DNA from: Candidatus Omnitrophota bacterium
Lineage (GTDB): Bacteria > Omnitrophota > Omnitrophia > Omnitrophales > Aquincolibacteriaceae
DNA length: 64,000 bases
NCBI GenBank assembly: GCA_043732705.1
Contig: JAYTHE010000029.1
Coordinates: 70,445 to 134,444 of the forward strand
Reading direction: 5' to 3'
Below, in pieces: positions 44,524-64,000 of the stretch; position 1 is the first letter of the stretch; each line of letters opens with the position of its first letter. The notes under the pieces are model-generated. The model saw only the letters and a program-made list of their open reading frames with translations. It did not search any database and was not told the DNA's origin. Both the position numbers and the translations under genes were made by a program.

Positions 44524-44615
44524 AACTTAAAAGTCAAAACTCAAAACCTAAAACTTGCTCGAACAACTTTGGGTTCCAAGCTATGGTTTTAAGATTTTAG
44601 ATTTAAATTTTGAGC
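44522..44615. repeat. ~90-bp palindromic MITE-like element (nuoK-nuoL spacer)
   Basis: aaaacttaaaagtcaaaactcaaaacc ... gctatggttttaagattttagatttaaatttt; arms mutually reverse-complementary. Confidence 0.6.
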
Positions 44616-44620
44616 TTATT

Positions 44621-46594: not shown

Positions 46595-46613
46595 CACTGC
46601 ACGGGACACATTT

Positions 46614-49489: not shown

Positions 49490-49494
49490 TTTTC

Positions 49495-49872
49495 TCAAGC
49501 GTTACCGCGCGGCTTCCAAAACTGCGCCTGTGAAATTACGCCTTCGGCATGAAGCGCCTCGATTAATTCATTGCCTGTTTTTGGCAGTGCAATTACGCGT
49601 CCATTTTTAAAAAGAATCATGGCCGTTTCGGCGTATAAAAAATTACCGAGGCGGTATTCCCAAAGCTCATACGAATTGGGGCCATATGGCATCATCGAAA
49701 CAATATGCGGCGGGCCTTCTAAAGTATATTGAACCTGCTCGGGAGTATTGCCGATTTGAATACTGCGCATGCGGTCAAAAACATAGGCGCGCGTCGTGGC
49801 ATCAGGAATCATCGTGCAGCCTGAAAAAATGAAGTTTCCCAATAAAATTAACAATATAAATTTATTTTTCAT
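49495..49872 (-). CDS. putative lipoprotein
   Basis: MKNKFILLILLGNFIFSGC lipobox. Confidence 0.5.
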   Translation of the reverse strand: MKNKFILLILLGNFIFSGCTMIPDATTRAYVFDRMRSIQIGNTPEQVQYTLEGPPHIVSMMPYGPNSYELWEYRLGNFLYAETAMILFKNGRVIALPKTGNELIEALHAEGVISQAQFWKPRGNA

Positions 49873-50255
49873 GAAATAAGGCTGGAAACAATCAGCATAA
49901 AAATACCCGCCGCGGCCCCGCAACCCAAAATAATCGCGAAAATAATGCGTCGATCCCAAATATAAATAAAGGCCCGGCGCCAATGCAAATAAGAAATGTA
50001 AAAAAAAATAAACTTAGCGGCACTTAATGTCAGAATTCCCGCCGCAAGAAAAGATACGGGATGCGCGGCCTGATAAAAACAAGCCCAGGCCAAGAGCGCC
50101 AAGGTCATGTAAGCCCAGCAAATCAAACCTAACCAAATCGGCCGTTCCTCCGGGAAAACTTTTTCGCCAATAGTTCTCCCCAACAAACAAAAGCCTATGA
50201 CAGACCAGCTCAGTGTAATTAAACCCGCAATGAAAGTTAATAAAGACAATGTCAT
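49869..50255 (-). CDS. hypothetical 4-TM membrane protein
   Basis: 128-aa hydrophobic ORF, 4-nt overlap with downstream lipoprotein gene. Confidence 0.45.
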   Translation of the reverse strand: MTLSLLTFIAGLITLSWSVIGFCLLGRTIGEKVFPEERPIWLGLICWAYMTLALLAWACFYQAAHPVSFLAAGILTLSAAKFIFFYISYLHWRRAFIYIWDRRIIFAIILGCGAAAGIFMLIVSSLIS

Positions 50256-50326
50256 GCTATTTTAACTATTTGCTGAAATAAAAAAGGGGGATGGGTTAAA
50301 ACCCATCCCCCATTCTTTCAATTGAG

Positions 50327-50797
50327 TTAGGATTGTGCCGGGGCCACAGTTGTCAAGGCATCTGCGCTCGCGGAACTATCCGCGGCAGTCGCAGCGGCGT
50401 TTTCGGCAGCAGCAGCCGCATCTTTTTCAGCGGATTGTGTTTGTTCCGCGCTTGCTTTTTTAGCCGCATGTCGTTTCTTGGCATGTTTTTTCGTATGTTT
50501 TTTAGCTTTTCGCTTAGCAGCCGTCTTTTTCTTGCTTTTGCTCTTTTTAGGCTTTTTAGCTTCCGTCGTTGTAGTTGTCGTCGTCGCATTCGCTGTTGTC
50601 ACAGCAGGAGTCGTGGTCGTTGTTGTAGTCGTCGCGTCTGCGGCCGGAGCTGCATAAGGGTCATTTGAGTCTGCCGCAACAGTTGTTGTCGCTACCGCGG
50701 GCGCTGCAGCTGCATCCTCAGCAACCACGGGTGCCGGGACAGTCATAATAAGAACCCCAAAAATAACCGCTAAATTTTTCAAGAACTCGCTCTTCAT
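50327..50797 (-). CDS. secreted low-complexity Thr/Ala/Lys-rich protein
   Basis: signal peptide, poly-Thr runs, Lys-rich middle. Confidence 0.5.
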   Translation of the reverse strand: MKSEFLKNLAVIFGVLIMTVPAPVVAEDAAAAPAVATTTVAADSNDPYAAPAADATTTTTTTTPAVTTANATTTTTTTEAKKPKKSKSKKKTAAKRKAKKHTKKHAKKRHAAKKASAEQTQSAEKDAAAAAENAAATAADSSASADALTTVAPAQS

Positions 50798-50989
50798 AAT
50801 CTCTCCTGTTTGAATTAGTAATAGTGCGGGTTGAACGAAACGCCAAGCCTCGTCATTTCAGTTCTAACGAAGTGCTAGGCCACATCCGATTTATTTTGAG
50901 ATGTGGCACAGCACAGCGTATTATTTTGAAATAATGAACTCATTATTTCAATTTCAACGAAGCGCTAGTATAAAGATTCAGGCCAGAAA

Positions 50990-51223
50990 TTAAAGATTTT
51001 TTTCAATTTTTTTGCCGTTTTTAAGTCTTTTCCAGCCCTCGATAAGCAGCGAAACGGCAATCAAAAAAGTCCCTAAAAAGCCGGTTAAGGCAAATAACAA
51101 AGTCTTTTGGGATCCGCACCAAAAAGCGGCCGCCAACAATAAAACCGCCGGTACGGCATACCTGCATATATATTGTGAAAAAGTCACTTTTGCGACTGAA
51201 GCGCATGCCGGCAATGCGGGCAT
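50990..51223 (-). CDS. small 2-TM membrane ORF (overlaps upstream ORF; possibly frameshifted continuation)
   Basis: hydrophobic 77-aa ORF. Confidence 0.3.
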   Translation of the reverse strand: MPALPACASVAKVTFSQYICRYAVPAVLLLAAAFWCGSQKTLLFALTGFLGTFLIAVSLLIEGWKRLKNGKKIEKNL

Positions 51224-51558
51224 TCAAGCATCACCTTCAGAACGGGAATACTGCAGCGCGGGCAGCGACGATGCCCCTCGGGCGCAGGGCCATAATGCCA
51301 CCAAATCCACTTTACCAAGGCCGAAAGCAATCCAGCCATGAGAACTCCCAGGATGATCAGTTTCCAGATATTAAGCAATTCCGGATTAAGCTCAAAGTGA
51401 AAGATTTTTTTTACGAGCATGGGCATGAACCAAGCCCATGCCGCAACAACAAGCCACTTGATCACACGTAAAAGCGGCCGCGTGCTTAAATCAATCCACC
51501 CTGCCGCATCCGCGACAAGCAGCATCAGTCCCGCAACTAAAAAAGGCATCCACAGCAT
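51184..51558 (-). CDS. membrane protein with C-terminal Cys4 zinc ribbon
   Basis: CPRC...CPHC motif after 3 TM helices. Confidence 0.45.
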   Translation of the reverse strand: MLWMPFLVAGLMLLVADAAGWIDLSTRPLLRVIKWLVVAAWAWFMPMLVKKIFHFELNPELLNIWKLIILGVLMAGLLSALVKWIWWHYGPAPEGHRRCPRCSIPVLKVMLECPHCRHALQSQK

Positions 51559-51571
51559 AAAAACCTCATCT

Positions 51572-51670
51572 CAAAGGTTAAAAGTAAAATCTGAAAATAT
51601 AACTTAAAGGCCAAAATTATCCGGACAGTTTTTATTTTTGGGCTATGGTTTTAATCTTTAAGATTTAACC
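51572..51670. repeat. left ~100-bp inverted repeat flanking EVE gene (MITE-like family)
   Basis: ...ataacttaaaggccaaaattatccggacagtttttatttttgggctatggttttaatctttaagatttaacc. Confidence 0.7.
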
Positions 51671-52119
51671 TCTAACCTAGTAATAATTTGCCAATGTTTT
51701 TCGGAAACAGGCTGTACAGAAAGCCGGCTGCCTTTTTGTAAAAGCAGCATTCCCTCAAGCCCTGTCATTTTTTTAAGCTCTTCCAAAGATAAAAAACGTT
51801 TAAATTTTTTTACGAAATTTAGATCCACAAGATACCAAGTCGGATTTTCTTTTTTACTTTTGGGATCATAATGCACATCTTTTTTATCAAACGCCGTGGG
51901 GTCAGGATAAGGTTTCCCCGCGACTTTGGCAATGCCGGCAATACCTGATGGCTCAGCATTTGAATAATAAAAGAAAACAAGATCCCCTGGTTTCATTTGA
52001 TCGCGCATAAAATTACGCGCTTGATAATTGCGCACGCCGTCCCACATCGTTTTACCGTCACGGGCAAGATCCTCTATGGAATATACATCCGGCTCGGACT
52101 TCATCAGCCAATAATTCAT
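51658..52119 (-). CDS. EVE (PUA-like) domain protein
   Basis: MNYWLMKSEPDVYSIEDL...WDGVRNYQARNFMR typical EVE N-terminus; flanked by ~105-bp inverted repeats. Confidence 0.8.
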   Translation of the reverse strand: MNYWLMKSEPDVYSIEDLARDGKTMWDGVRNYQARNFMRDQMKPGDLVFFYYSNAEPSGIAGIAKVAGKPYPDPTAFDKKDVHYDPKSKKENPTWYLVDLNFVKKFKRFLSLEELKKMTGLEGMLLLQKGSRLSVQPVSEKHWQIITRLEVKS

Positions 52120-52123
52120 AACA

Positions 52124-52235
52124 ACTTAAAGGTTAAAGCTCAAAAGTCAAAACCATAGCCCGAAACTAAAAACTGTCCGGATAGTTTTGGCCTTTAAGTT
52201 ATAGTTTTAAGCTTTTACCTTTAACTTTTAACCTT
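52124..52235. repeat. right ~105-bp inverted repeat flanking EVE gene
   Basis: reverse complement ~85% identical to 51572-51670, 40-bp core with one mismatch. Confidence 0.7.
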
Positions 52236-52599
52236 TCTTAATTGCCCCTAAAATAAAAAATATCCATCCCGTCATCAAAAGTAGCCCGCCAATTGGCGTA
52301 ACAGCACCAAAGCCGCGAATACCCGTTAGCGCTAATATATAGAGACTGCCCGAAAAAACAATAACCCCAGCCGTAAAACAAGTTCCCGCACGAGAAATAA
52401 GTTTCGAATCGAAAACAGAAACAGCCCAAGAAGCGGCAAGCAGGGCAAAAGCATGATAAGTCTGATAACGCACGCCGGTTTCAAAAATGAGGAGCATTTC
52501 AGAGGACAAATGTTGTTTTAGGGCATGGGCGCCAAAGGCTCCCAACAGAACGCTTAAAAACCCAAACACTGTGCCTGTAATAAACAACATTTTTTGCAT
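52228..52599 (-). CDS. DUF423-family small membrane protein
   Basis: GAFGAHAL motif, 4 TM. Confidence 0.6.
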   Translation of the reverse strand: MQKMLFITGTVFGFLSVLLGAFGAHALKQHLSSEMLLIFETGVRYQTYHAFALLAASWAVSVFDSKLISRAGTCFTAGVIVFSGSLYILALTGIRGFGAVTPIGGLLLMTGWIFFILGAIKKG

Positions 52600-52706
52600 G
52601 GAAGCATTATACAGAAAATATGGAAACCCTGATAGACGACAGCTCCATTTTTGGTTTAAAATATTCGAGATCGTTTTAACCATCTTTTCATCGAGGGAGA
52701 TTCATA

Positions 52707-53072
52707 ATGAAAAATTCACCCGTTCTTAAACTTTTAGCTCTTTTGCTCGCCTTTGGCATGGCTTTATCAGGCTGCAGCACAACCAAGGTCGCCAAGGATT
52801 GGAATGGCGTTTCATCCCCGGATGGTAAGCCACTTGCTCATGTCAGCACATCCAATATGGCGATCCATTTGTTGCTGGGGAAAAATCCGGCCTGGGGCAA
52901 TGCAAGTCTTGAACAAACCGTTTCAGACTTCACAGCCGCTGCCAAAGCTCAGGGCGCGTCCAAAGTGCGCATTGTTCAATCGAACAGCACTTCATGGTGG
53001 TTCATATTCTTCCCGTTCTCCTTGCTTGTTACTCCTGTAACCAGCAATGTAGCCGGAGACGCGATCGCCTAA
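52707..53072 (+). CDS. putative lipoprotein
   Basis: LLAFGMALSGCSTT lipobox; GAGGGAGA SD. Confidence 0.55.
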   Translation: MKNSPVLKLLALLLAFGMALSGCSTTKVAKDWNGVSSPDGKPLAHVSTSNMAIHLLLGKNPAWGNASLEQTVSDFTAAAKAQGASKVRIVQSNSTSWWFIFFPFSLLVTPVTSNVAGDAIA

Positions 53073-53089
53073 GCGGTTTCTTTTCGCAA

Positions 53090-53128
53090 ATAAAAAACGC
53101 GGGGTCAGAAATGACCTCGCGTTTTTCT
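53090..53128. terminator. bidirectional intrinsic terminator between convergent lipoprotein gene and nuoI
   Basis: A6-ACGCGGGGTCA-GAAA-TGACCTCGCGT-T5. Confidence 0.65.
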
Positions 53129-53153
53129 TTTACGGTATTGAAAGAATAAAATT

Positions 53154-53224
53154 AACCGTTTGCGGTCAGGTGTAATCCAGAGCAAAAGCTACGGTTGCGC
53201 GAAGCGCAGAGTAAAAAGATGCGG
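53154..53224. repeat. PE x2 (variant + canonical) downstream of nuoI
   Basis: tttgcggtcaggtgtaatccagagcaaaagc ; tacggttgcgcgaagcgcagagtaaaaagatgcgg. Confidence 0.7.
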
Positions 53225-53824
53225 TTACTGCGAGAGAACTTTTTGGAGATCGCGCTTCGCGACAACTTGCGCATAAAGCGGATTGGGATTAAGCAGCTCA
53301 ACAATATCGAGTTTCATACCTTCGCGCGTATAAGACGCCATATCAAGAATCTGCGTATCCATGCGAATCGCGTCTTCGGGACAAGCCTCAACACAAAATC
53401 CGCAAAAAACACATTTTCCAAGATCAATATCAAAACTCTTGGGACGTTTTTCAATATTTACGTCGGGATGTTCCTCCGCCACAATCGTGATGCACTTTGC
53501 GGGACAAACTGTTTCACACATCATGCACGCCACACAGCGCGGTGAATTATCCACGCGTTTGGTTAAACGATGCCGTGTGCGTAATCGCGAAGGTGGCTTG
53601 CGTCGCTCTTCGGGGTACATGATGGTTACACCCGCGCGAATTAATTTAAAAAGCCCAATCGCATGCATCGTGTGAAAAAAAAGATTTTTCCAGAAATGCC
53701 CGCCGGTAATCCATACGCCGCGGATGATTTCAGGAACATAAATCTGCTGCCAGAAGTTGAGTACAGGCCGGTCAACGACCTTGGTTTTTATCGTCATAGG
53801 GATTGGAATTGTAGCACAACTCAC
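53225..53824 (-). CDS. nuoI: NADH-quinone oxidoreductase subunit I (2x[4Fe-4S] ferredoxin)
   Basis: CVACMMCETVCP and CVFCGFCVEACP motifs; GTG start at 53824 or ATG at 53797. Confidence 0.85.
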   Translation of the reverse strand: MSCATIPIPMTIKTKVVDRPVLNFWQQIYVPEIIRGVWITGGHFWKNLFFHTMHAIGLFKLIRAGVTIMYPEERRKPPSRLRTRHRLTKRVDNSPRCVACMMCETVCPAKCITIVAEEHPDVNIEKRPKSFDIDLGKCVFCGFCVEACPEDAIRMDTQILDMASYTREGMKLDIVELLNPNPLYAQVVAKRDLQKVLSQ

Positions 53825-53832
53825 GCTTGGCG

Positions 53833-56800
53833 TTAAGCAGCAGAAAGCGTTAATTGGACGCCAAAGATTTGGGCTGCCAGGGCATCCAAGCCCACACTGT
53901 GAAACAGTTTGGCAATACCTTGGTCCGTGAGAATTCGATAGTCACCCATTTGCCGTAGTAAAGTAACCGTCTCAGAAGAATCATCCTGGCTCATCAAAGC
54001 TGAACGACGCGCATATTTTCCATGCGTTTGTGCGGCTAAGTCTTGCGGACTGACAAAGACCAGGCCTTGTCCCTTGAACCCTTTCGCCTCGATTAAATTT
54101 TTGAATTCCAGCCGTTGCTGTTCGTTTTCAGCATAAATCGCAAACAGTTTATCGCCCAATACTCGTTTATCTTGTAAGAATCCCTTTTGATGCACAAGTG
54201 CAGGACTTAAAACAACCAAATCCGCCGGTGATTTCATAATTTTATCCATAACAGTCGGCAACACCGGAGCACCAAAATATTGCCCATAAAACCTACTAAA
54301 CTCGGAACGCGTCATAGTATTAACAAATGACACTGAAAAAATATTCCTAGCCATTCTGGTGACTTCAATCTGAGATTGCGGCGAAACTATCAGTTCTTTT
54401 GTCCGCATTTCCGAGCGTAGCACTTTATCGGCAGCAACTGCGTTGTCTGGCAAATTCCACCTATAAATTAGTTCACGAATAAGAATACGATTGACCATTG
54501 ACTGCCTTGAAAATTCACGCTGCTGGCCTGGGTTTTTGACTTGTCTCATCAAAGTGAGCGACAACTCTCTGCTGAATGGATTAACAACGTGGTGCACAAG
54601 ACCCATTGCACCATCTTCACTCATTCTATTAAGAACCTCTTCGAGAGATATTCCTCGAAGATCTTGCATTGTTTTCAGCAAAGTCTGAACCTCTTGATCA
54701 TTCAAAAGCTCCGTATTTTTCATGCCATGAAAACGATCCGCCAATGTTTTTTCATCGTCGGAGCCATAAATCCATTGATCTCGAGCCACCAACGAATCTA
54801 AATATTTAGAAAAATTAAACTCCGTTTTTCTTTTTTCTTTTGCATCCCAAGCAAAAAATGATTTTGTTGTAAATGTTGTGTCTCGAGAAGCCGCTTTTAA
54901 GCGTGCCAAAACTAAAGAGAAACTTTGATCTTCGCTGTTTCTCAAAACCTCTTGCGATTCGGAGCGTGGAACGGTCACAGCTGGCGCAGTTTTTATTTCA
55001 AGTGGTTCAATAAAGCCGGTTTGCAAGCTATCACCACTTGGTATCACATGAACTAAAAATCCTTTGCGGGCTCCATCGCTAGCTAGATTTTCTTTCAACT
55101 GCATTTTTAAATTGCCTTTCACACCACTTTTTAGTTTGATTTCTACTGCCTCCTGGTCAACGCTATTGATTTTGATACGAACCAATTTCAAAATCTTTCC
55201 GGTATGGCTCAAATCTTTCCTTTGATCACGCTCAAGCTCTGCTGTAAAAGAAACTTCGAAGCGCGCAGCTTGGGTCCGCACTCCCGGGATAATTCCAAAT
55301 TGATAAATGCCGCTAACCTTAACACGTTTTCCAGGACGAAATAGTCCGCGGCTCGCTACTTGATTATGTAACTCTTCATCACGCGAATTATCGGGGCGCA
55401 AAGTCATAACAACACCAAATCTGTCCGGCGGTTCGCCTCTCGGTCCTTCTCCGTCCCGCGCTTCTGAACGGACACGCTTTGCAATAGCTCTTTTTATTTT
55501 TCCGAATAAAACTTTCCCATCTGGCGATGCAAGATAATGCAAGGTATGCGAATATTCTCCGGGATGTTTCCAAATATCAGTCTCAAAAAAATTAACGGAC
55601 ACGAGGTGAAACTCTTCGATTTCGTTAAGATTGTAATTTTCTTTTATTTTTTTCAACTCGGCATCAGAAACAAAATATAAATACGCCGTTGTAAACTCGC
55701 GATTGACCCCGTCTTCAAGATCATATTCACGATATATACCATTTTGTTTAGTAAGCGGAATGAACCGGTCTGAGTCAATACGAATACCCACTTCCTCTTC
55801 CGCTTCGCGGCCTGCGGCCGCAATCGGCAATTCGCCGAAATCAACATGGCCGTTCACCGAAACCTGCCATTTCCCCTTGGACGAAGCTTTATTCTGACTG
55901 CGTTTTTGAAACAACAATCTTCCTTTTGAGTCTACAAAATAAATATGTGCCGACATGTGATAAAAACCCTTTTTATGCGCCTCGTCTTTCTTTGCTTTGC
56001 GCCCGGAAAGAATATTGCCATGCTTGTCAGTTAAAGCCACCCCTTCAACGGCTTCGCTTGACTCCACCCCCATTTTTCCGCCCTTTAAAATTAAAACATC
56101 CTGCCGCATTTCGGAGCGCGGTGCTGCAAGCCCTTGGCTCGTGAAACCTTCCTGTCTTACGCTCTTTTCTGGTCTCACCTCAGACGGAGGAAGAATGAGA
56201 TCCGCGGGTTCTGCTTGCCGCAATAAATCAAATTGCTGCAGCGCATCCATCAACCCTTGAAATAAACTTTCTTCCTTTTTTTCTTCGGCGCTTAACGCTT
56301 CCATTTGCTGCCGAAAAGCACGGATTTTTTCTTCGACCTGGCGCTGTGCTTCTAAATCGGCTTTGTAGTCTTCATAATCGGCGCGGCCATGCAGATTTTC
56401 GATCATTCGGTTTTGATAATAATCCCGCTGCCATTGCAACTCAGACAGAGAGCCTTCTTTTGGGGCCGCTTGCCTTGCTTGAGTAGATTTTTCTGATTCA
56501 GTCATGTGTTTACGTACCGCTGCCTTTAATGCTTCTTGCCTTTGGTTTGTGAAATTAATATGAAACGGCCCACGAAGAGCTAGGTGACGGACCAAATCTA
56601 AATATTCAACTGTTTCATCCGACAAAGACCGCAGCCAATCTGCGATTCGTTTAAGTCTGGGCAAAGTGTCTTGCAGGAGAGGTTCAAACGAGTCAACCGG
56701 AAAAAATCCACGATTCATATAAGGTGTGGCAAAAAGCGTTGGCTGTCCGACCTTATTTAAAGCAAAGAATACGCCCCGCCCAAACTCGTCTTCTTTCCAC

Positions 56801-59800
56801 AGAGGTACATGGCTGCGAAGCCATTGCGCCGTGTTACGAATCGAAAAATAATTTTTTTTCAACCAACTATTAAGTAATTCAAACTCATGCTGATAAATGT
56901 CAGCCGCTAAAAATTCAAACCATACCGCTCGTCCTCCTTTAAATTGAAACGCATGGTTGTTTGAGCGATGCGCAGAGAAAACAACTTCCCATAAAGGCAT
57001 CAAACAAGCTTGCAGCAGCTGCCCGTCTGCCAATAATCCTTTTGCGGCAATTTGGAACGCAGTCATCGCGGGATTCGCCGTAAGAGCAGCGAATGCCCCT
57101 ATTAAATTTTGCATAAAAATTCGCCGCGTTTGGGAACGATCTAAATAATCTGCCGTGTGCAAAAACAAATCCTCCGCTAGCATCGGAATGCTTTCCACGA
57201 AACGCTGCGGCGACACAATTCGCCGCGCAGGTTCGTTTGCATTCTCGGCCTTTATTTTTTCAAAAACGGGCTGCCAATACGCAAACGCAAAGGGCTGTTT
57301 TGAAAGAAACTCTGAAAATTCTTCCGCAAGAGCGTCCTTCACTTCAAGCTTGGGCATTTTGAAACGCAGCCATTTCACTAAAAACTTGTTTTCTTCCCTT
57401 TGAATTTTTTCATGAATAAACCTTTCCGCGAGCTTAAGCAATGCCTGTTTATTCCCGACATCATCTCCCCCAACAATCAGCTCATTACGCATTTCGGAGC
57501 GTGCCATTTCCCGGTAAAGCGCAAAATGCTTTTCGGCATTCGCTTGCTGCGAAAAACTTTGAACTGCAAAAGCGCGCCCCGCTTTCCCCATAGCTCTGCG
57601 TTTTTCCGGATGATCCGCCAAATCCAAAATTGCTTCGGCCATCGCTTCTCTATCGCCTTGCTTCACAAAAACTCCCGCATCCGGGCTCAACGCTTGATCA
57701 ACGCCTTCGGCCTCATAGCTCACAACCGGAACTTCCATCGCTCCCGCCTCGATCGCCATCAATCCCAAAGATTCATAGCGCGTCGGAAACACGACTAAAT
57801 CGCTTGCGCGATAACCTTCGCGCACTACCGTTGGCGATCCCGCCGGCAGTATTTGAAAACAATCTTCTAAGTTTTCTCTTCTGATCCCTACAGCAACCGC
57901 GAGATTAATCTCACGGTTTTCATCTTGAGGCCCCATCAATACAAACTGGAATTTAAAATCAGGCCGCTTCTCCCTCAAAATTCTGGCGACTTCAATCAAT
58001 TCTGGCTGGTTTTTTTGTTTGCTGAACCGTGCAGGATAGAAAATCATGAATCGGTCTTTTTTATCGCCCAACATCTTTTCTCTGGCTTTCGCGCGATCTA
58101 CTTTTGCCGGATCTTCAAAATCAGTATCAATGCTGGCTTTGATTAAACGGGTCCTTGAGTCCCGCAATCGCGGAAGAGCAACGGTCGTATACCCGACCAA
58201 AACAGGCACAAGCCATGGCGCGGCCAAATTAAAAATCAAACGGATAACCCATTTAAGCGGCCAAAACCAACGCGCTTTGCCGGCATATAATCGATAAGGC
58301 ATATGATTGGTCGTCACAACCGGGATGCGCTTAATCCCAAAAAGCGCAAAATCAAAAGGCGAGTTCATTTGATGTGAATGAATCACATCGACAGGCTCAG
58401 ATCGCGCAATCTCAGAAACAACCGCGCGGATTTTTTTCATCCATCGAAAATCTCCCAATGGAGTATTGGGATAAGATTCAAAATCAGAAATCGGATGAAA
58501 AATCAATGTCCCTTGACCGTGTTTGAGTTCACCCCCTACTGTGTTGGCTTTTTCGGCGCGGTAAACAATATGAATGCGCACGGGATAACGCCGCGTCAGC
58601 TCTTCGTTAAGGCGGTGCACATAAGTCATCATGCCACCTTTGCGTAAAATTTCCCAATCCATGACCTGAACAATTGTCAGTTCGCGAACGGACGAACCTG
58701 CTCTCCGCATTTCGGAGCGGGCGTCCCATTTTTTTCGAAATTCAATCCATGGCTGAAACTGATTGAATTCAAAATGATCGGGAGCGGCGTCCACCCCGCT
58801 TGCTAAGCTCTGAACGGCAGCAATATCACGCCGGTTGGAATGTCCCGAATCCGCGTCCATTGTCCCTTCGATTAAATCAATAATCGCTTTAAAGCTTAAA
58901 TTTGAATTATCCAAATCAATCCAAAACTCGGTTTTGTAATTTGTCATTTCATCGCTCTGATTACCAACTTGAATCCCACGGCGACCATAACGATCGATTA
59001 GTATTCTTTGTTGTTCGGTGGGCAGTCCTGATGAACGGTAATAACTTTCAACTTCTACTTTCGGCTTAATTACATAACTAAACTCATATGCTGAGGGACC
59101 AAAACCGGTCACAATTTCATCGGTATTCAATAGTAGGTTTAACTCCCTAAAAAAATCTTTAACTGCTCCTTCGGTGATCCGTGATTCGGAACGACGATCA
59201 GAAGCTTTTTGATATTTCCAGCGAATTGCATGATCACGCGACACATTGATTAATTTACCTTCCGGCCGGCCTTGTGTATTAAGCAATTTCACCGGAATCA
59301 TTTCCGGCCCGCCGGCTGTGTCTTCTGAAACTTCCAGAACGATGAGTGCATCCACAGTGCCAATAATGATGCGGTCACCCATTTTAAAATCAGTATCAGC
59401 CTCTATATTATAAACGGGGCTATCAGACAAAAATCCATACCGTGATCGTTTAGTAAGAAAACTTATCTTTTCAATTTGGGCCGATGAGCTGTAATCCGCA
59501 TTGCTTTTTTGAGCGCGCGTATCACGATGCAAAAAAAGCAATCGATGCTCAGCGACTGACTTACGGCCTTGGCGCTGATAGGGATTTTCAAGATACCACT
59601 TCGCTAATTTTCTCTGCGGTTCAAGGCTCAGATTTTGAGCCGCCCAAGCAAGCGCGTTATCACGCGCCTTGCGGTCCGCGGGAGAAAACATCTGACCCAA
59701 ATAAATTGCCTCTAAAAGAATTTCAATATACGCAACTGACCAATGATTGTTACGTTTCGCATTTTTCCAAACCTCATCTTTCAGCGGCTTCAATTCATCA

Positions 59801-62800
59801 AAAAGGAATTGAATCGCCTTTTTCCCGCCTGCAAAAGACTGCATCAATGTCCAAGCCCACTTGTCTTCATAATAATCTTCAAGACTTACTACTTTAGACG
59901 GAATAGAAAATTCTAAAATCGCATCCGCGAACGAAAGCGCCTGTTGCGAGATTTGAAACGCAGGACTCATTGCTATTCCGGAGGTAAGATTTGAAGTAAT
60001 CGCTGACAACAAAGCCGTGCGGTCTTTTTTTAAAAATATTTTTTCAAATTTTCTGATGTTTGCTGCCTGTTCAGGAAAAGTTTTTTTAACTCGTTCTATA
60101 TAAGCCCAGTCAACATCACGCATTTCGGAACGACTCACCACACCAGATCTCGGATCTAACGAAACAGATCCGGGATCTGGGGGGGCCAACCGCATTTCGG
60201 AGCGGTCGTTTTGTTTTTTGGAAAGTGATTTGATTTCGTTCCATCGCGGCGGTCGGTTAATAAGGTTCGCAGCAATTGCGGCGAGTCCGTACCCTATAAA
60301 ATCTTTGGGGTCATAAGTCGTCCAAATAAATGCGCTTGGTAGCTGCACATATTTAGTCATTAACTCTTCGAGAGCAAACACAAGCGGAACTCCAACATTC
60401 GAAAGCAATAAGGCTGTCCGCAAATCGGCAAGCCATCCTTTATAAACGAAAATAATTGCGGTCACGCCATACCCAAACAAACTGCACGAAAGAGGGAACA
60501 ATAAATCCGGCAGCCAATCGAGCCATGTCCAATAATTTTCTTTCCCGATCGTTTGGGATCGAAGAACAAGAAGCATCTGATCCCACATTAAAAACGCTCC
60601 GCCGAAGCCCAACATCTTGATTGCATGGCTCAACTGGGTCGAAAAAAGCGCGCGACTCACCGAACTAGATCCCGGATCTAACGGAACAGATCCGGGATCT
60701 GGGGGGGCCAACCGCATTTCGGAACGGGTCCTTTGTTCTTTAAAAAGAGCTTTGATTTCGTTCCATCGCGGTGGCCGGTTAATAAGGTTCGCGGCAATTG
60801 CGGCGAGTCCGTACCCTATAAAATCTTTGGGGTCATAAGCTGTTCCAAGACCCCATTCCGGAACAGGCACCCACTTCGTCACGAGTTCTTCGATCGCAAA
60901 GGCAACTGGAACTCCAATGTTCGTAAGCAATAAGATAGCCCGTAAATCAGCGACCCATCCTTTAAATAAGGCAAAAATGGCTCCCCCGCTATATCCAATT
61001 AAGCTACAACTAAGAGGCACAAATAAATCTGGCAACCAATCAAGCCATGTCCAATAGTTTTCTCTCCCTATCGTTTGGCGCCGTAGCAAGCAAAGCGCTT
61101 CATCGAACACAAAAATGAGCCCACCCCACGTCATCATCCGAATGGCATGTTTAAGTTGCGCAATCGAAAGAGAGCGAATATCTTTGGCTTCTCCTTTGCT
61201 CGGTTTTTTACGCGATTCGGAACGAACGAAGCCGGGTGATGTGATTGAATCTAACCCTCTTATTTCTGATCGGAACTGATAAGCCGTAATGAGCTGCTGC
61301 ATCTGTTCGCCGGGACTTAGTTGTCCGGCCAGTATATTTAAAAATTGTCTTTCGCTTGCATGAAGTTTGTTCAACTCCGCATAAGCCTTTTGCGCCCATT
61401 CCTCGACTGTCCCCGGACTCTCCGCTAAATGAATCTCTCTTAGGGCAGCCTCCGCTCTTATAACCGCATCAATTTGTTTCAATGCGTACGCATGCGAAAA
61501 TTCGGACTCAGAGTGTCCAATCGCGGCCCCTTCGTCTTGTAGCAAATGGAGAATCGCGCGGACCACTGGTAACCTTGCCCATCCGTCCAGGATCTCTTGG
61601 ATGCCGGAAGCGTACACATACCATCGGATGTCACTTTCTGACCAATCCGCACTGCCGGTCCAATCTTTAAACCACTGCCTTAGAAGGTCGTAGCCGTCGG
61701 GGTTGATTTTAAAACCCAGTCCATATTCTGACTGGGTCTCCGGAAAATCAGTTTCGGCTTCGGCAGGTAATTTACTGCGATAGAGCGCGACAGCATCCAA
61801 TATTTTTTTCCGCAATTTTAAATCACCAAGCGCCTCCTCGGCTTTTCGTTTCTGGAGATCTTTTTTAACTTCAGCCGCATACAGTTTTCTATCTTGTTCG
61901 ACCTGCCTGACGTTTACGCAAATACTCACAACAATTCCGGTTTCAGCATGAAGGTAATAGATGCGCCCACCATCTTTTGAAAGCGCGATTTTTTTCCAAA
62001 TATGTCCGTTCGTTTTAAATATTTTTGCGCGCTCCAGACTTTTCACAACCCATAAATTGCCAAAAGATTGGGGCATGTTTTTCGATTGGTTTTGTATTGA
62101 TCCGGAAATAAATTCCCCTTCCTTTATAAACTCACCGGTATCATCCGCTTTGATTTTTAATTCCTGTAATTTTCCTGAAAAAACAGGCGTCTGGACCGTG
62201 GGCAAATAACCAATATAAGTGATTTGCATCATCCCAATACCGGCCGGCCACAAACCATATTTTTGCCCCGCGGCCGCTTGATGCTGAGTTAACGCCGCTA
62301 AAAGCTGCGGGCTAACAAGAGCGGGCGAGGCCGAATTTTCCAATTTCCAATCACGCATTTGCGGTAAAAAGTGATACAGCCGATCCGAGTTTTGGCCTTG
62401 CATGTAAAGATGCACAAGCAAAGTGCGATAAACCAACAAGTCTTGTGCGGATAATTGGTTTAAATCATGCGGATGCCAGCCTGTCGGGTACATGGCATAC
62501 AAAGCAAAGATTTTGGGATCGGTCCGAGTCCAGGTTAAATCATTTGATTGAACGGCAAATCGAAGACGTTTATAGCCTGAAAGATCGGGCCGGCCCGCAT
62601 AAGACTGCATTTCATTTAAAATGGCCAAAACTTGCTTTCTTTTGGGTTCATCCAACTTTTCAAAAAGGTCAATTCCAAACAAGCCTATTTTTAATCTCTT
62701 CAGAATTTCTACGGAATCAAAATGAGTTTGATTATTAAATATGGTTTGCAACTCATGGGCGCGCTCTTCCGGATAAGCCGTGACATACTGCCGCACTTCA

Positions 62801-63969
62801 TTAGATTCAGGAGAATTGAAGGGAATGGTTGCTAAATAATAACCCGCAACAATTCTCGCTTTTGCTTCTGAAAATTCTGAAATGTTTTGAAAATACTTCC
62901 TCAAAGCGGCCGGAGACGCACCCATGACTGCCGATAATAATGCGATGGTTTTGGCGCCAAAAATTTCGAAATGCATCAGAATGAGCCCATGATAACCTTC
63001 GAACATTTGTTCTGCGTTAAATCGATTCATCGGGTCATCACTCGCGCCTTGCTGAAGATCAACAACATGCTTTTTAAATTCTTCATATGCCGTTAAAAGG
63101 CTCCCAGCCGACAGATTGTCTTTCACTTCCAAAAGCCTGAAAAAATCTTCGTGGGCGTTTTTTTTGCGCTCGATTCCGGCGGCTTTAAAAAATGGCTCCG
63201 CCTCTTGCACATAGCCGCGAAGCCTTTCGATTTGCAATTTCTCCGAAAAGCGCTCTTCCGAAAAACTTTGACTATGATGATCTTCCGCGATTTTTTTTAA
63301 ATTATTTGTAAGCTGAGCATATTCGACAAGATTCATGATTTTGCTTACCAAGATAGCCAGCTTTGCTAAATGCGGGCCCGCCGCACCCCATCGCCCCCGC
63401 CCTTTGGTTGTTTGGGAAGCGAGATAGTTTTTAACTTGGACATAAGTGACACGCGTACCCAAATTCCGCCATAAACTAAAAAGTGTTTCCAGCTCTTTTA
63501 AAATTAAATCATCACGGGCAGAATGAATATTTAGCTCAGCCAATAAATCTAAGGCGCTATAAATTTCTTCCGTCGTTGGAATCGCTTGCCTCTCCGCGTT
63601 TTTGACAAAAGCAGCCGCTATTTCCACTGTATGGACATGAGCCGAAACAGCTTGAGAACTACTTTGTTTTTGGATTCTTTCACGCATATCCCACGCACGT
63701 TGATACTCACTCTTTTGTTTCCAATTCTTTTCTCCTGGGCCGGCAGATATAACAACGTTCAATGCCTCAAGAATATCCGTATCGCCGGCTTGAATCCTTT
63801 CAGAATAAAGCTTGGCAACAAGATCGCGGGGATCGGGAACATGAATTTGCCGTTCAACTAAATTGCTTCTGTTACCGTAAAACGTCATGGCGCTGACCCA
63901 TGCCGCGACTTGGTCAACTGTCTCGCGCCGCAAACCATTTGCACTTTCCAGAGCAAGCCACTCGGACAT
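53833..63969 (-). CDS. giant multidomain protein (3378 aa as read from ATG 63969; no in-frame stop upstream before window end): GT4 glycosyltransferase + Nudix hydrolase + duplicated 4-TM modules + recurrent RSEMR linkers
   Basis: single uninterrupted ORF; GT4 C-domain motif YESLGLMAIEAGAMEVPVV...EAEG; Nudix box GHVDFGELPIAAAGREAEEEVGI; tandem ~175-aa hydrophobic repeats. Confidence 0.8.
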   Translation of the reverse strand: MSEWLALESANGLRRETVDQVAAWVSAMTFYGNRSNLVERQIHVPDPRDLVAKLYSERIQAGDTDILEALNVVISAGPGEKNWKQKSEYQRAWDMRERIQKQSSSQAVSAHVHTVEIAAAFVKNAERQAIPTTEEIYSALDLLAELNIHSARDDLILKELETLFSLWRNLGTRVTYVQVKNYLASQTTKGRGRWGAAGPHLAKLAILVSKIMNLVEYAQLTNNLKKIAEDHHSQSFSEERFSEKLQIERLRGYVQEAEPFFKAAGIERKKNAHEDFFRLLEVKDNLSAGSLLTAYEEFKKHVVDLQQGASDDPMNRFNAEQMFEGYHGLILMHFEIFGAKTIALLSAVMGASPAALRKYFQNISEFSEAKARIVAGYYLATIPFNSPESNEVRQYVTAYPEERAHELQTIFNNQTHFDSVEILKRLKIGLFGIDLFEKLDEPKRKQVLAILNEMQSYAGRPDLSGYKRLRFAVQSNDLTWTRTDPKIFALYAMYPTGWHPHDLNQLSAQDLLVYRTLLVHLYMQGQNSDRLYHFLPQMRDWKLENSASPALVSPQLLAALTQHQAAAGQKYGLWPAGIGMMQITYIGYLPTVQTPVFSGKLQELKIKADDTGEFIKEGEFISGSIQNQSKNMPQSFGNLWVVKSLERAKIFKTNGHIWKKIALSKDGGRIYYLHAETGIVVSICVNVRQVEQDRKLYAAEVKKDLQKRKAEEALGDLKLRKKILDAVALYRSKLPAEAETDFPETQSEYGLGFKINPDGYDLLRQWFKDWTGSADWSESDIRWYVYASGIQEILDGWARLPVVRAILHLLQDEGAAIGHSESEFSHAYALKQIDAVIRAEAALREIHLAESPGTVEEWAQKAYAELNKLHASERQFLNILAGQLSPGEQMQQLITAYQFRSEIRGLDSITSPGFVRSESRKKPSKGEAKDIRSLSIAQLKHAIRMMTWGGLIFVFDEALCLLRRQTIGRENYWTWLDWLPDLFVPLSCSLIGYSGGAIFALFKGWVADLRAILLLTNIGVPVAFAIEELVTKWVPVPEWGLGTAYDPKDFIGYGLAAIAANLINRPPRWNEIKALFKEQRTRSEMRLAPPDPGSVPLDPGSSSVSRALFSTQLSHAIKMLGFGGAFLMWDQMLLVLRSQTIGKENYWTWLDWLPDLLFPLSCSLFGYGVTAIIFVYKGWLADLRTALLLSNVGVPLVFALEELMTKYVQLPSAFIWTTYDPKDFIGYGLAAIAANLINRPPRWNEIKSLSKKQNDRSEMRLAPPDPGSVSLDPRSGVVSRSEMRDVDWAYIERVKKTFPEQAANIRKFEKIFLKKDRTALLSAITSNLTSGIAMSPAFQISQQALSFADAILEFSIPSKVVSLEDYYEDKWAWTLMQSFAGGKKAIQFLFDELKPLKDEVWKNAKRNNHWSVAYIEILLEAIYLGQMFSPADRKARDNALAWAAQNLSLEPQRKLAKWYLENPYQRQGRKSVAEHRLLFLHRDTRAQKSNADYSSSAQIEKISFLTKRSRYGFLSDSPVYNIEADTDFKMGDRIIIGTVDALIVLEVSEDTAGGPEMIPVKLLNTQGRPEGKLINVSRDHAIRWKYQKASDRRSESRITEGAVKDFFRELNLLLNTDEIVTGFGPSAYEFSYVIKPKVEVESYYRSSGLPTEQQRILIDRYGRRGIQVGNQSDEMTNYKTEFWIDLDNSNLSFKAIIDLIEGTMDADSGHSNRRDIAAVQSLASGVDAAPDHFEFNQFQPWIEFRKKWDARSEMRRAGSSVRELTIVQVMDWEILRKGGMMTYVHRLNEELTRRYPVRIHIVYRAEKANTVGGELKHGQGTLIFHPISDFESYPNTPLGDFRWMKKIRAVVSEIARSEPVDVIHSHQMNSPFDFALFGIKRIPVVTTNHMPYRLYAGKARWFWPLKWVIRLIFNLAAPWLVPVLVGYTTVALPRLRDSRTRLIKASIDTDFEDPAKVDRAKAREKMLGDKKDRFMIFYPARFSKQKNQPELIEVARILREKRPDFKFQFVLMGPQDENREINLAVAVGIRRENLEDCFQILPAGSPTVVREGYRASDLVVFPTRYESLGLMAIEAGAMEVPVVSYEAEGVDQALSPDAGVFVKQGDREAMAEAILDLADHPEKRRAMGKAGRAFAVQSFSQQANAEKHFALYREMARSEMRNELIVGGDDVGNKQALLKLAERFIHEKIQREENKFLVKWLRFKMPKLEVKDALAEEFSEFLSKQPFAFAYWQPVFEKIKAENANEPARRIVSPQRFVESIPMLAEDLFLHTADYLDRSQTRRIFMQNLIGAFAALTANPAMTAFQIAAKGLLADGQLLQACLMPLWEVVFSAHRSNNHAFQFKGGRAVWFEFLAADIYQHEFELLNSWLKKNYFSIRNTAQWLRSHVPLWKEDEFGRGVFFALNKVGQPTLFATPYMNRGFFPVDSFEPLLQDTLPRLKRIADWLRSLSDETVEYLDLVRHLALRGPFHINFTNQRQEALKAAVRKHMTESEKSTQARQAAPKEGSLSELQWQRDYYQNRMIENLHGRADYEDYKADLEAQRQVEEKIRAFRQQMEALSAEEKKEESLFQGLMDALQQFDLLRQAEPADLILPPSEVRPEKSVRQEGFTSQGLAAPRSEMRQDVLILKGGKMGVESSEAVEGVALTDKHGNILSGRKAKKDEAHKKGFYHMSAHIYFVDSKGRLLFQKRSQNKASSKGKWQVSVNGHVDFGELPIAAAGREAEEEVGIRIDSDRFIPLTKQNGIYREYDLEDGVNREFTTAYLYFVSDAELKKIKENYNLNEIEEFHLVSVNFFETDIWKHPGEYSHTLHYLASPDGKVLFGKIKRAIAKRVRSEARDGEGPRGEPPDRFGVVMTLRPDNSRDEELHNQVASRGLFRPGKRVKVSGIYQFGIIPGVRTQAARFEVSFTAELERDQRKDLSHTGKILKLVRIKINSVDQEAVEIKLKSGVKGNLKMQLKENLASDGARKGFLVHVIPSGDSLQTGFIEPLEIKTAPAVTVPRSESQEVLRNSEDQSFSLVLARLKAASRDTTFTTKSFFAWDAKEKRKTEFNFSKYLDSLVARDQWIYGSDDEKTLADRFHGMKNTELLNDQEVQTLLKTMQDLRGISLEEVLNRMSEDGAMGLVHHVVNPFSRELSLTLMRQVKNPGQQREFSRQSMVNRILIRELIYRWNLPDNAVAADKVLRSEMRTKELIVSPQSQIEVTRMARNIFSVSFVNTMTRSEFSRFYGQYFGAPVLPTVMDKIMKSPADLVVLSPALVHQKGFLQDKRVLGDKLFAIYAENEQQRLEFKNLIEAKGFKGQGLVFVSPQDLAAQTHGKYARRSALMSQDDSSETVTLLRQMGDYRILTDQGIAKLFHSVGLDALAAQIFGVQLTLSAA

Positions 63970-64000
63970 CGCGAGCGTTTTAACATAATCATTCTCAGAG

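Follow-up and report, generated by a model that had tools for sequence, protein, structure and literature searches.

What does a single reading frame of more than 10 kb encode when it lies directly upstream of a complex I gene in a bacterium of the Candidatus Omnitrophota, and does its product stay in one piece? The frame occupies one end of the window, the 64,000-nt stretch of DNA analysed here, and a sequence-only reading had described it as an ORF of 3378 codons. Translation showed that the minus-strand frame is open from its TAA stop (53833-53835) up to the window edge; counted from position 63999, it holds 3,388 sense codons, and the ATG at 63969 encodes an internal methionine. An exhaustive HMMER search retrieved P0001, a 7,377-aa NCBI protein encoded on a 156,692-nt contig, which matches the query at 100% identity over its last 194 residues and contains the full window translation. 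Since the frame runs on into P0001, the window carries the C-terminal 46% of the gene, whose true start lies about 11,967 nt past the window edge. The open frame thus stood, but the supposed ORF is in fact the end of a much longer protein, encoded by a single ORF of 22.1 kb, above the 20-kb mark, 10.2 kb of which form the window part. Exact-sequence look-up gave no database record for the 3,378-aa version or for P0001, a word-index search gave no match for the last 1,218 aa or for the C-terminal domain, and a peptide-pattern search found no relative of the first 925 aa of the window part among GTDB genomes.

A frame of this length calls for a check that it is not a mis-assembled or frameshift-fused operon taken for a single ORF. 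The source is a metagenome-assembled genome, and a tandem repeat within the gene interrupts short-read assembly: contig L002 of the Logan assembly ends exactly at this repeat, at the RSEMR junction that follows its second copy. However, in a codon-usage model trained on the window's other genes, the gene's own frame scored best in every one of the 44 segments of 150 codons. The Logan assembly of run SRR23617244, which is independent, is 100% identical across window positions 52287-60192. Moreover, the same stop-free layout, in which an N-terminal cap (N-cap) is followed by RSExR pentapeptides and a C-terminal cap (C-cap), occurs in at least 10 independent assemblies from different projects, including complete members of 2,557 and 3,605 aa. 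An artefact is therefore exceedingly improbable. The modules and junctions of the window part are listed in Table 1.

Table 1. Giant gene, its modules and junction pentapeptides within the window, and the adjacent nuoI gene
Feature	Position	Strand	Remark
Giant gene, C-terminal 3,388 codons + stop	53833..63999	-	7,377 codons in full
Module M10c, last 909 aa of a 1,238-aa module (P0001 3661-4898)	61273..63999	-	no recognisable domain
Junction RSEIR, window aa 910-914	61258..61272	-	
Junction RSESR, 11 aa past preceding RSEIR	61210..61224	-	
Module M11, 161 aa, hydrophobic/membrane module, tandem copy 1	60727..61209	-	
Junction RSEMR (between M11 and M12)	60712..60726	-	
Module M12, 169 aa, tandem copy 2	60205..60711	-	63% identical to M11
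Junction RSEMR (after M12)	60190..60204	-	Logan contig L002 break
Junction RSEMR, 19 aa past preceding RSEMR	60118..60132	-	
Module M13, 308 aa	59194..60117	-	no recognisable domain
Junction RSESR (after M13)	59179..59193	-	
Module M14, 153 aa	58720..59178	-	no recognisable domain
Junction RSEMR (M14/M15)	58705..58719	-	
Module M15, 401 aa, complete GT4 glycosyltransferase	57502..58704	-	Pfam domains 57532-58638
Junction RSEMR (M15/M16)	57487..57501	-	
Module M16, 456 aa, C-terminal part coiled-coil-like	56119..57486	-	no recognisable domain
Junction RSEMR (M16/M17)	56104..56118	-	
Module M17, 211 aa, Nudix hydrolase, YfcD/IPP-isomerase-like type	55471..56103	-	Pfam domain 55585-55962
Junction RSEAR (M17/M18)	55456..55470	-	
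Module M18, 346 aa	54418..55455	-	no recognisable domain
Last junction RSEMR (M18/M19)	54403..54417	-	
Module M19, 189 aa, family's conserved C-terminal cap	53836..54402	-	Rossmann-like alpha/beta core
nuoI, 190 aa from ATG, directly downstream of giant gene	53225..53797	-	

Two enzymes can be recognised in the window part. In the GT4 glycosyltransferase, Glyco_transf_4 (PF13439, 43.3 bits) covers aa 1788-1920 and Glycos_transf_1 (PF00534, 87.9 bits, E=7e-25) aa 1977-2143, both GT-B halves exceeding the Pfam thresholds. The module aligns up to the extreme C-terminus of free-standing enzymes (6tvp, residues 79-399 of 401; 5d00, residues 79-375 of 379). The sequence-only reading had proposed this GT4 domain together with a hydrophobic insertion between its halves; Pfam bore out the former, and the hydrophobic stretch WVIRLIFNLAAPWLVPVLVGY (aa 1917-1937) lies at the C-terminal end of the first half, just before the inter-half gap. 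The Nudix hydrolase, likewise anticipated, was confirmed by Pfam at aa 2680-2805 (PF00293, 52.7 bits, E=5e-14), and its Nudix box GHVDFGELPIAAAGREAEEEVGI, read in the translation, is intact and fits the GX5EX7REUXEEXGU consensus. Of the named types, YfcD and IPP isomerase come nearest to it, its scores against both staying under the equivalog cut-offs. The two tandem modules of about 175 aa described earlier are also real, but a simple hydropathy scan, which detected only one to three strongly hydrophobic segments per module, did not bear out four transmembrane helices each. It was fair to call the function largely unknown: in the window part, Pfam, NCBIfam, PADLOC and PHROGs give nothing apart from GT4 and Nudix. 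Anti-phage defence and phage origin were dropped as explanations, PADLOC being empty and PHROGs returning only generic GT and Nudix families. Residues 1-4000 of P0001 have zero Pfam matches at E<=0.01, and a candidate M23-type peptidase at P0001 2218-2575 was rejected for want of Pfam or PDB support.

What the earlier domain list had missed is the recurrent RSEMR junction motif. Twelve RSExR junction sites lie in the window part and 20 in full P0001. The forms in the window ORF include RSEMR (seven times), RSESR (twice), RSEAR and RSEIR, and module M18 holds in addition a degenerate RSESQ at 54952-54966; the remaining 54 kb of the window contain, in any frame, one single further RSE[MSA]R. Across the family, 74 RSExR were counted per 38,217 residues (12 ORFs), as against 8 per 444,830 residues in the other ORFs of at least 200 aa from the same loci, which makes the family ORFs 108-fold enriched. 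RSE.R also ranks first or second among the de novo enriched four-of-five patterns in five relatives. The pentapeptide, which is present at each of the module boundaries, can be written as Arg-(Ser/Ala)-Glu-x-Arg, with x mostly Met. Other large ORFs from Omnitrophota and Planctomycetia either lack RSExR (L019, L032, L080, L098) or contain it once (L033); on this comparison the motif is family-specific and not phylum-wide. A literature search on RSEMR returned only unrelated acronyms.

Several observations relate the motif to protein boundaries. Zero Pfam domains are interrupted by RSExR; a helicase (DEAD plus Helicase_C) is confined to one module, as is a PRTase+AAA+SLOG protein; and an HPr protein begins 8 aa past a junction. 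Module lengths in the family have a median of 358 aa, with an interquartile range of 208-581 aa. Judged from these sequences, RSExR marks the boundaries of protein-sized modules, and P0001 appears as a chain of about 21 such modules, complete enzymes among them. The idea that the junctions are internal start codons was rejected, Met being present in just 28 of 72 instances.

Do the junctions act as peptide or as DNA? If RSExR were mainly the footprint or target of a recombination that places cassettes in frame, the peptide would be a by-product. Cassettes do travel as motif-bounded units, the 15-mer is almost constant in the window clade (CGYTCCGAAATGCGK), and the Met codon (ATG) at position 4 could be a leftover of captured start codons. 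Family-wide, however, conservation is at codon positions 1 and 2. Over 72 motif instances, the CGN and AGR families both serve for Arg, and TCN and AGY both for Ser; third positions are unconstrained, and conservation does not extend into the flanks. This mixture of synonymous codon families, together with the free third position, points to selection on the peptide rather than on a DNA site. Besides, the junctions have no flanking recombinase or repeat structure, and homologous exchange would need more than fifteen degenerate bases. A DNA-level role is accordingly improbable, and the codon pattern indicates that RSExR is selected as a peptide.

Next to nuoI, the position of the giant gene is conserved among close relatives. 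The sequence-only reading had placed the stop 9 bp before nuoI; the adjacency holds, but the distance is 8 nt to a GTG and 35 nt to an ATG. The latter is the start in the Logan gene call, and relatives align from it at 87-90% identity, while the 199-aa version of NuoI starting at the GTG has no exact database record. The closest NuoI relatives (60-90% identity) are overwhelmingly from Candidatus Omnitrophota MAGs, with UBA2337 as top match. No terminator-like site was found between the giant gene and nuoI, and their adjacency is kept in four relatives; co-transcription of the two is possible. The neighbouring genes encode SOD, AhpC, TPR, MBL, DHFR, ThyA, ABC-2 transporter and NuoI proteins; several are housekeeping genes (SOD, AhpC, ThyA, DHFR, nuoI), and no secretion or protease gene is among them.

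Orthologous giant ORFs, which the sequence-only reading had proposed to look for in related genomes, were found upstream of nuoI in relatives, three GTDB genomes included, and they carry different enzymes. This is so even in species whose NuoI is 87-90% identical, where the giant ORFs at the same locus hold quite different enzymes. In all, at least 10 related metagenomic or MAG loci share the N-cap (with a signal peptide called by eye), the C-cap and RSExR, with inner cassettes that are almost wholly different and include methyltransferases, PRTase/SLOG, GHMP kinase, Fic, HAD, helicase and HPr proteins. The GT4 cassette is common to the window gene and L083 (401 and 402 aa, 53% identity end-to-end), at array position 17 in the former and 5 in the latter, where it has no Nudix neighbour. 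The Nudix cassette is shared with P0002/L084 (69% identity), P0002 having one orphan cassette in common as well (51%); in the species with 90% identical NuoI, all remaining inner modules are unrelated. From these alignments, modules come and go in orthologous genes and change place between them, whereas both caps and the junction motif are retained.

Such turnover bears directly on the suggestion, made in the sequence-only reading, of one membrane-anchored megaenzyme in which GT4 and Nudix cooperate on sugar nucleotides. Both domains are present and membrane-like modules lie upstream. They are, however, distinct cassettes, each delimited by RSExR and two junctions apart, with a 456-aa module between them, and relatives have one or the other: L083 contains the GT4 cassette, P0002 Nudix and GNAT. 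Since orthologous genes bear unrelated enzyme sets, the co-occurrence of GT and Nudix in separate, exchangeable modules gives no support to a sugar-nucleotide megaenzyme, which is very improbable.

The two caps are the constant parts. Beyond the window, the N-cap begins with a Sec-type signal peptide (by-eye call), followed by a domain of about 500 aa with a TIKI/Ere/ChaN fold: the AF2 model (pLDDT 82) has a parallel beta-sheet core as in ChaN, Ere, HopBA1, TraB and RRSP. Against PF04187, the ChaN model of the Tiki superfamily, the N-cap reaches 18 bits (cut-off 27.7) in 2 of 9 members, and no match exceeds the Pfam gathering score for PF04187, PF01963 or PF05139. Residues D75-x-H77, E105, R452 and H480 (P0001 numbering) are invariant or nearly so and lie at or near strand ends, His to Glu and Arg to His each being 28 aa apart. 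In RRSP, the essential residues are E3900-x-H3902, E3930, R4001 and H4030, with spacings of 28 and 29 aa (PMC6254334). The N-cap resembles the TIKI/Ere/ChaN/TraB-PrgY superfamily in having conserved acidic-x-His, Glu, Arg and His residues at family-like spacing (PMC6254334), but it differs by a helical insertion of about 340 residues between the domain halves, by Asp in place of the first Glu and by its sub-threshold Pfam score. The superfamily also includes esterases and haem-binding proteins.

Fourteen metagenome loci carry the N-cap, at 36-56% identity, and 7 of the 14 are multi-kilobase ORFs with 4-12 junction motifs; L086 and L088 keep the TIKI residues, yet have only 5 and 4 junction motifs per approximately 3,600-3,900 aa. 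Stand-alone N-cap homologues adjoin multi-enzyme fusions (TIM+GAPDH, PGK) without RSExR, so the link between cap and motif is not strict. The C-cap, of about 190 aa, is Rossmann-like and conserved across the family, with an internal conserved M-T-R-S-E-F-(R/S) at 54295-54309 and a terminus in -SAA. The C-terminus of a TIM-GAPDH fusion (L097) was rejected as a C-cap homologue (hhalign probability 0.8%).

Taken together, the giant gene may be regarded as a chromosomal Omnitrophota gene for a modular polyprotein, of which the window holds the 3' part. Several complete proteins share one frame and a common junction peptide, as in a polyprotein, and RSExR would be recognised by a protease that divides the precursor into separate proteins, in the manner of viral polyproteins or MARTX toxins. 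As protease, the foremost candidate is the protein's own N-terminal TIKI-family domain, whose conserved residues resemble the catalytic pattern of TIKI-family endopeptidases. To cleavage at RSExR, perhaps by this TIKI-like cap, we assign a probability of about one half. The pentapeptide could instead have another role, in linking, docking or modification. The most speculative step concerns the destination of the cassette products: a signal peptide combined with nucleotide- and cofactor-dependent cassettes suggests that they may act outside the producer's cytoplasm, for instance in a host or prey cell. That the whole is a Sec-exported effector polyprotein, with about 20 swappable cassettes cut at RSExR by the TIKI cap to yield a fast-changing mixture of enzymes for use on or inside host or prey cells, is a tentative and rather unlikely extension. 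Enzymes of a cytoplasmic type do not fit easily with a signal peptide unless there is also a delivery step.

The main competitor to cleavage is a giant multi-enzyme scaffold that stays uncut, as a membrane-tethered assembly line or a surface coat, in which RSExR would be a structural or recognition element of the linkers, acting for instance as a hinge, as a pause site for chaperones or secretion, or as a place where its Ser is phosphorylated or otherwise modified. No dedicated protease gene adjoins the locus, the junction flanks have a mild, linker-like excess of small and charged residues, and cutting at motif pairs only 11-19 aa apart would yield tiny peptides. A plain linker, however, needs no invariant Arg, Glu and Arg, which are kept down to 36% N-cap identity. 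The cassettes are moreover unrelated, without a shared pathway and freely swapped between species, which argues against an ordered assembly line. An uncleaved scaffold is possible, if somewhat doubtful, and clearly less probable than a polyprotein cut at RSExR.

How does the gene compare with known systems? The earlier statement that no described protein has this architecture was mistaken as to kind. Omnitrophota ORFs of >20 kb have been described (Seymour et al. 2023, PMC10066038), "Archaeovorins" combine glycosyltransferases, methyltransferases, peptidases and NUDIX domains (West-Roberts et al. 2023, bioRxiv 10.1101/2023.11.21.568195), and "multi-enzyme metabolic clusters" form a described class of giant proteins (bioRxiv 10.64898/2026.06.07.730766). 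The Omnitrophota giant proteins belong to the same phylum and likewise tile one ORF with unrelated enzymes (glycosyltransferase, methyltransferase, NUDIX, HAD, GNAT); they share, too, the presence of hydrophobic segments, weak sequence conservation and a majority of orphan regions, and post-translational cleavage is suspected there as here. Yet P0001 (22 kb; 7,377 aa) does not reach the Archaeovorin gene size of >90 kb (>30,000 aa) and lies far under the preprint sets at >90 kb/30,000 aa and at least 10,000 aa. From the Archaeovorin domain set, GT4 and NUDIX are present here and methyltransferases in sister genes, with no glycosyl hydrolase and no Pfam-recognised peptidase; C39 or S8 peptidase, SecA-like and dockerin domains were not detected by Pfam in P0001 1-4000 or the window part. 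The TIKI-fold N-cap, the C-cap and the RSExR peptide are features of the present gene, and term searches of the cited Omnitrophota papers found no mention of them. No literature pairing Omnitrophota with polyproteins was found.

MARTX toxins (PMC6315884) are similar in having a giant chain with conserved ends and a variable, recombining middle of enzyme domains; their inter-domain regions are processed by a protease domain of their own, as is proposed here. The TIKI fold of the N-cap recurs in one of their effectors, RRSP, but there the TIKI domain is an effector and not the processing protease. P0001 further lacks RTX/MARTX repeats and a CPD (Peptidase C80), and T1SS genes do not adjoin it; in neither P0001 nor its relatives did Pfam detect RtxA repeats or an InsP6-activated cysteine protease domain. 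A Sec-type signal peptide (by eye) takes the place of the C-terminal T1SS signal, the phylum is different, and the defined pentapeptide junction motif sets the present family apart. Viral polyproteins (potyvirus NIa-Pro sites, PMC7833154) also translate many complete proteins in one chain, with a short conserved peptide at every junction and a protease in the same chain, here a candidate. In contrast to these, the present locus is cellular, chromosomal and syntenic, its cassettes are interchangeable and look non-essential, and cleavage is only inferred.

Omnitrophota and other ultra-small, host-dependent bacteria are characterised by giant ORFs; whether the products of these function as a single chain or are cleaved, and at which points, is an explicit question, which RSExR makes experimental. 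The motif may mark the cutting points of such giant proteins, and it provides a rule by which they can be split into units before their structures are predicted and their parts annotated. A family can now be defined by its TIKI-like N-cap, RSExR junctions and C-cap, and a candidate protease with candidate catalytic residues is at hand. There is also evidence that the interior is a set of cassettes turning over quickly at one chromosomal position, as is typical of genes for interaction with other cells. If cleavage is true, the gene would be a rare case of viral-style polyprotein expression in a cellular genome. Should the effector-polyprotein reading also be true, the family would be a cellular equivalent of the polyproteins of viruses, the MARTX principle would have arisen a second time independently, and RSExR would be the missing cleavage code for Omnitrophota giant proteins.

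The reading frame of about 10 kb on the minus strand is continuous, as the sequence-only reading had claimed. A codon-usage model trained on the window's other long genes preferred it to both shifted frames in 44 of 44 overlapping 150-codon segments, so a hidden frameshift or a non-coding spacer is absent. Two contigs from Logan, an independent assembly of run SRR23617244, are 100% identical to the window where they match it, the second stopping exactly at a repeated junction within a tandem module pair. Of the bounds first proposed, the stop at 53833 stood; the start at 63969, an ATG listed by the ORF finder, turned out to be an internal methionine. Searched exhaustively with HMMER, the last 194 residues retrieved P0001, a 7,377-aa NCBI protein encoded on a 156,692-nt contig. 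The window translation forms its C-terminal portion, so that 46% of the gene, which is 22.1 kb long, falls in the window. At its N-terminus P0001 has a stretch resembling a signal peptide, read by eye as MIASGLVALLFLETAAWA with the boundary before AP and supported by a hydropathy peak.

The gene is a cassette array, in which complete proteins are joined by a peptide-level junction motif, Arg-Ser-Glu-x-Arg (RSExR), between two conserved caps. Cutting the window part at this motif defined the modules listed in the table. Pfam agreed with the domains first read from the sequence, a GT4 glycosyltransferase (both halves) and a NUDIX domain, and found none besides these in the window ORF; in NCBIfam the Nudix domain comes closest to the YfcD and IPP-isomerase types, under their cut-offs. 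The proposed tandem modules were recovered as a duplicated hydrophobic pair (161 and 169 aa, against about 175 aa first given). RSExR variants in the window ORF (RSEMR seven times, RSESR twice, RSEAR and RSEIR once each, and one degenerate RSESQ) all sit at the starts or ends of recognisable domains. Six-frame translation of the remaining 54 kb contains RSE[MSA]R twice, once in a frame overlapping the giant gene and once at 11440, apparently by chance.

Features of the giant gene, its surroundings and its relatives (window coordinates unless a locus or protein is named)
Feature	Position	Strand	Length	Description
Giant ORF, window part	63999 (window edge) to TAA at 53833-53835	-	3,388 sense codons	Open at the window edge
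M10c			909 aa	C-terminal piece of a 1,238-aa module; no domain
M11			161 aa	Hydrophobic, duplicated
M12			169 aa	Second copy; 63% identity to M11
M13			308 aa	Orphan
M14			153 aa	Orphan
M15			401 aa	GT4
M16			456 aa	Orphan
M17			211 aa	Nudix
M18			346 aa	Orphan
M19 (C-cap)	53836-54402	-	189 aa	C-terminal cap
Motif within C-cap	54295-54309			M-[TS]-R-S-E-F-[RS]
Paired junction motifs	60190-60726; P0001 2792/2814, 4899/4915			11-19 residues apart
RSESR	11440-11454	-		Sole copy beyond the giant-gene region; within a 224-aa ORF
Logan matches	45009-52315; 52287-60192			100% identity
nuoJ, K, L, M, N	43718-49489	+		After atpD
Low-complexity ORF	50327-50797	-	156 aa	Signal-peptide-like start
nuoI	53225-53797	-		Behind the giant gene
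UBA2337-type ORF parts	L083:3310-15066; L003:1-9930		about 7,040 aa joined	Overlap of 181 aa
Transposase-like ORF	L088:20695-21554			IS200/REP-associated tyrosine type
N-cap homologue and fusion	L097:10001-16542			1,661-aa TIM+GAPDH protein
N-cap homologue and fusion	L098:10001-13766		 	742-aa PGK protein

Whole P0001 contains 20 RSExR. Across the family there are 74 in 38,217 residues, compared with 8 in 444,830 residues of the remaining ORFs (200 aa or longer) at the same loci, a 108-fold enrichment (12-fold for RAExR), and a de novo pattern search in five relatives ranked RSE.R first or second in enrichment, at 70-94 times expectation. RSExR interrupts no Pfam domain in the window and family ORFs checked, and multi-domain enzymes are each contained in a single module. 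An HPr domain starts 8 residues past a junction, the match of the GT4 module to free-standing GT4 enzymes reaches to 2-4 residues from their C-termini, and the GT4 cassettes of two species (401 and 402 aa) align end to end from array positions 17 and 5. In length, the modules match ordinary bacterial proteins (median 358 aa, interquartile range 208-581 aa). Some motifs lie in close pairs, which may have been left behind when cassettes were lost or duplicated. The stretch RSEMRLAPPDPGS occurs verbatim after each of the two tandem membrane modules, where the Logan short-read assembly breaks.

The interior of the array turns over very fast at a fixed chromosomal site. A NuoI search gave 87-90% identity in 'Candidatus Omnitrophica bacterium UBA2337' and two other MAGs, and 60-78% in dozens more Omnitrophota MAGs. 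The orthologous giant ORFs that the sequence-only reading had suggested looking for were found directly upstream of nuoI in the three closest genomes, running off the fetched DNA (L003, >3,310 aa; L004, >1,361 aa; L005, >884 aa). Their homology to the window ORF is limited to the last module of about 190 aa (27-30% identity). L003 and L004 contain RSE[MAST]R repeatedly, and the short fragment L005 has it once. The Pfam domains differ widely from those of the window: a SAM methyltransferase, PRTase + P-loop + SLOG and an HMGL-like domain in L003, a methyltransferase in L004, and a GHMP kinase in L005. The end of the L083 ORF, from an ENA metagenome contig, is 100% identical to the start of the L003 ORF, which belongs to the UBA2337 locus, so the UBA2337-type orthologue is about 7,040 aa long. 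With the window protein it shares no more than the N-cap (55%), the C-cap (28%) and a single interior cassette, GT4 (53%), even though the two NuoI proteins are 90% identical. The complete 2,554-aa family protein P0002 and P0001 have in common the N-terminal module (60% when the two sequences are aligned), a Nudix cassette (69%), an orphan cassette (51%) and the C-cap; the rest of P0002 is GNAT and orphan modules. Scanning metagenomes with the N-terminal module added 14 loci at 36-56% identity, 7 of them multi-kilobase ORFs with 4-12 R[SA]ExR (0-3 in shorter fragments). L087 has GNAT, a DEAD/Helicase_C helicase and HPr, and L094 has HAD, Fic and a methyltransferase.

The N-cap, which lies outside the window, has a single recurrent and weak Pfam match, the Tiki-superfamily ChaN model. 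The entries tabulated for it all belong to the TIKI superfamily: ChaN and HopBA1 (8.4 each), the erythromycin esterase EreC (8.3), the Ere-like 'succinoglycan biosynthesis' proteins 2qgm (8.1) and 2rad (7.9), a TraB family protein (7.3) and the MARTX endopeptidase RRSP (7.0). Its conserved residues are D75-x-H77, E105, R452 and H480 (P0001 numbering), with both histidines and the glutamate placed after beta-strands in the model. To cleave Ras, RRSP requires each of E3900-x-H3902, E3930, R4001 and H4030, whose His-to-Glu and Arg-to-His spacings are 28 and 29 residues (PMC6254334), as against 28 and 28 in the N-cap. The N-cap is thus probably an active TIKI-type hydrolase, and it may be a protease with RSExR as substrate. 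The C-cap has a Rossmann-like alpha/beta core (model pLDDT 67, core about 85), for which no specific structural relative was found. About 37 residues past the last junction it embeds a conserved motif, present at the same position in P0002, P0003, P0004, P0005, L004 and L005, which could be the ancestral copy of the junction motif or a pseudo-substrate. All family proteins terminate in -[SR][AS]A, ends that resemble Ala-Ala C-terminal degrons.

Junction DNA is almost constant in the window clade (CGYTCCGAAATGCGK). The 72 junction instances compared nevertheless use both codon families for Arg and both for Ser, their third positions are free and their flanks unconserved, and position 4 is variable (Met 28, Ala 12, Thr 8, Ser 5, Ile 4). 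This pattern marks RSExR as selected at the peptide level, not as a DNA or RNA site, and disfavours a DNA-level explanation of the junctions. An operon fused by mis-assembly or frameshift is likewise disfavoured by the codon usage and the identical Logan contigs. So is the membrane-anchored sugar-nucleotide megaenzyme first proposed, GT4 and Nudix both being present but in separate modules (M15 and M17).

An invariant R-S-E-x-R stands at each protein boundary, and recognition by a processing enzyme would account for it most economically; for this reason we read the giant gene product as a polyprotein cleaved at RSExR, with a probability of about one half. The main rival, an uncleaved scaffold in which RSExR plays another role, seems unlikely. 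The best candidate for the protease of such a polyprotein is the TIKI-type domain in the same chain, itself a doubtful assignment. Neither protease nor secretion genes adjoin the family genes.

Upstream of the family genes lie housekeeping genes (divergent Fe/Mn-SOD and peroxiredoxin, then TPR, MBL, DHFR, ThyA and an ABC-2 transporter). Downstream is nuoI in the window clade and L084. Between the giant gene and its nuoI there is no terminator-like site. A complete 3,605-aa member with few junction motifs (L088) is followed by a transposase-like ORF, not nuoI. The complex I genes of the window are split, nuoI standing alone about 4 kb from nuoJ-N and convergent with them. The 156-aa ORF, also called identically in the Logan contig, has long stretches of Thr and Ala and a block rich in Lys (KKPKKSKSKKKTAAKRKAKKHTKKHAKKRHAAKKA), a low-complexity composition that is histone-H1-like or surface-protein-like. 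Stand-alone N-cap homologues of about 510 aa with a signal anchor occur immediately upstream of glycolytic-enzyme fusions at L097 and L098; RSExR is absent from both fusions, and the TIM+GAPDH protein has its own signal-peptide-like start. The cap may be generally tied to multi-enzyme fusion proteins in Omnitrophota.

The name 'Archaeovorins' has been given to giant proteins that combine glycosyltransferase, methyltransferase, NUDIX and peptidase domains, with cleavage suspected and the cutting points declared unknown (bioRxiv 10.1101/2023.11.21.568195), and 'multi-enzyme metabolic clusters' have been reported among giant proteins (bioRxiv 10.64898/2026.06.07.730766). The gene thus belongs to a known kind. 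'Motif' in the junction sense, 'linker' and 'polyprotein' occur in neither of these two preprints on Omnitrophota giants, and the combination of TIKI-like N-cap, RSExR junctions, C-cap and cassette exchange appears to be undescribed. The likeness to MARTX toxins is functional only, the MARTX-defining repeats, CPD and T1SS being absent. The signal peptide, together with the cofactor-dependent cassettes (Fic, GNAT, methyltransferases, Nudix, helicase, HPr), leads us to speculate that the cassettes act in another cell. If true, this would suit the predatory or parasitic lifestyle proposed for Omnitrophota (PMC10066038).
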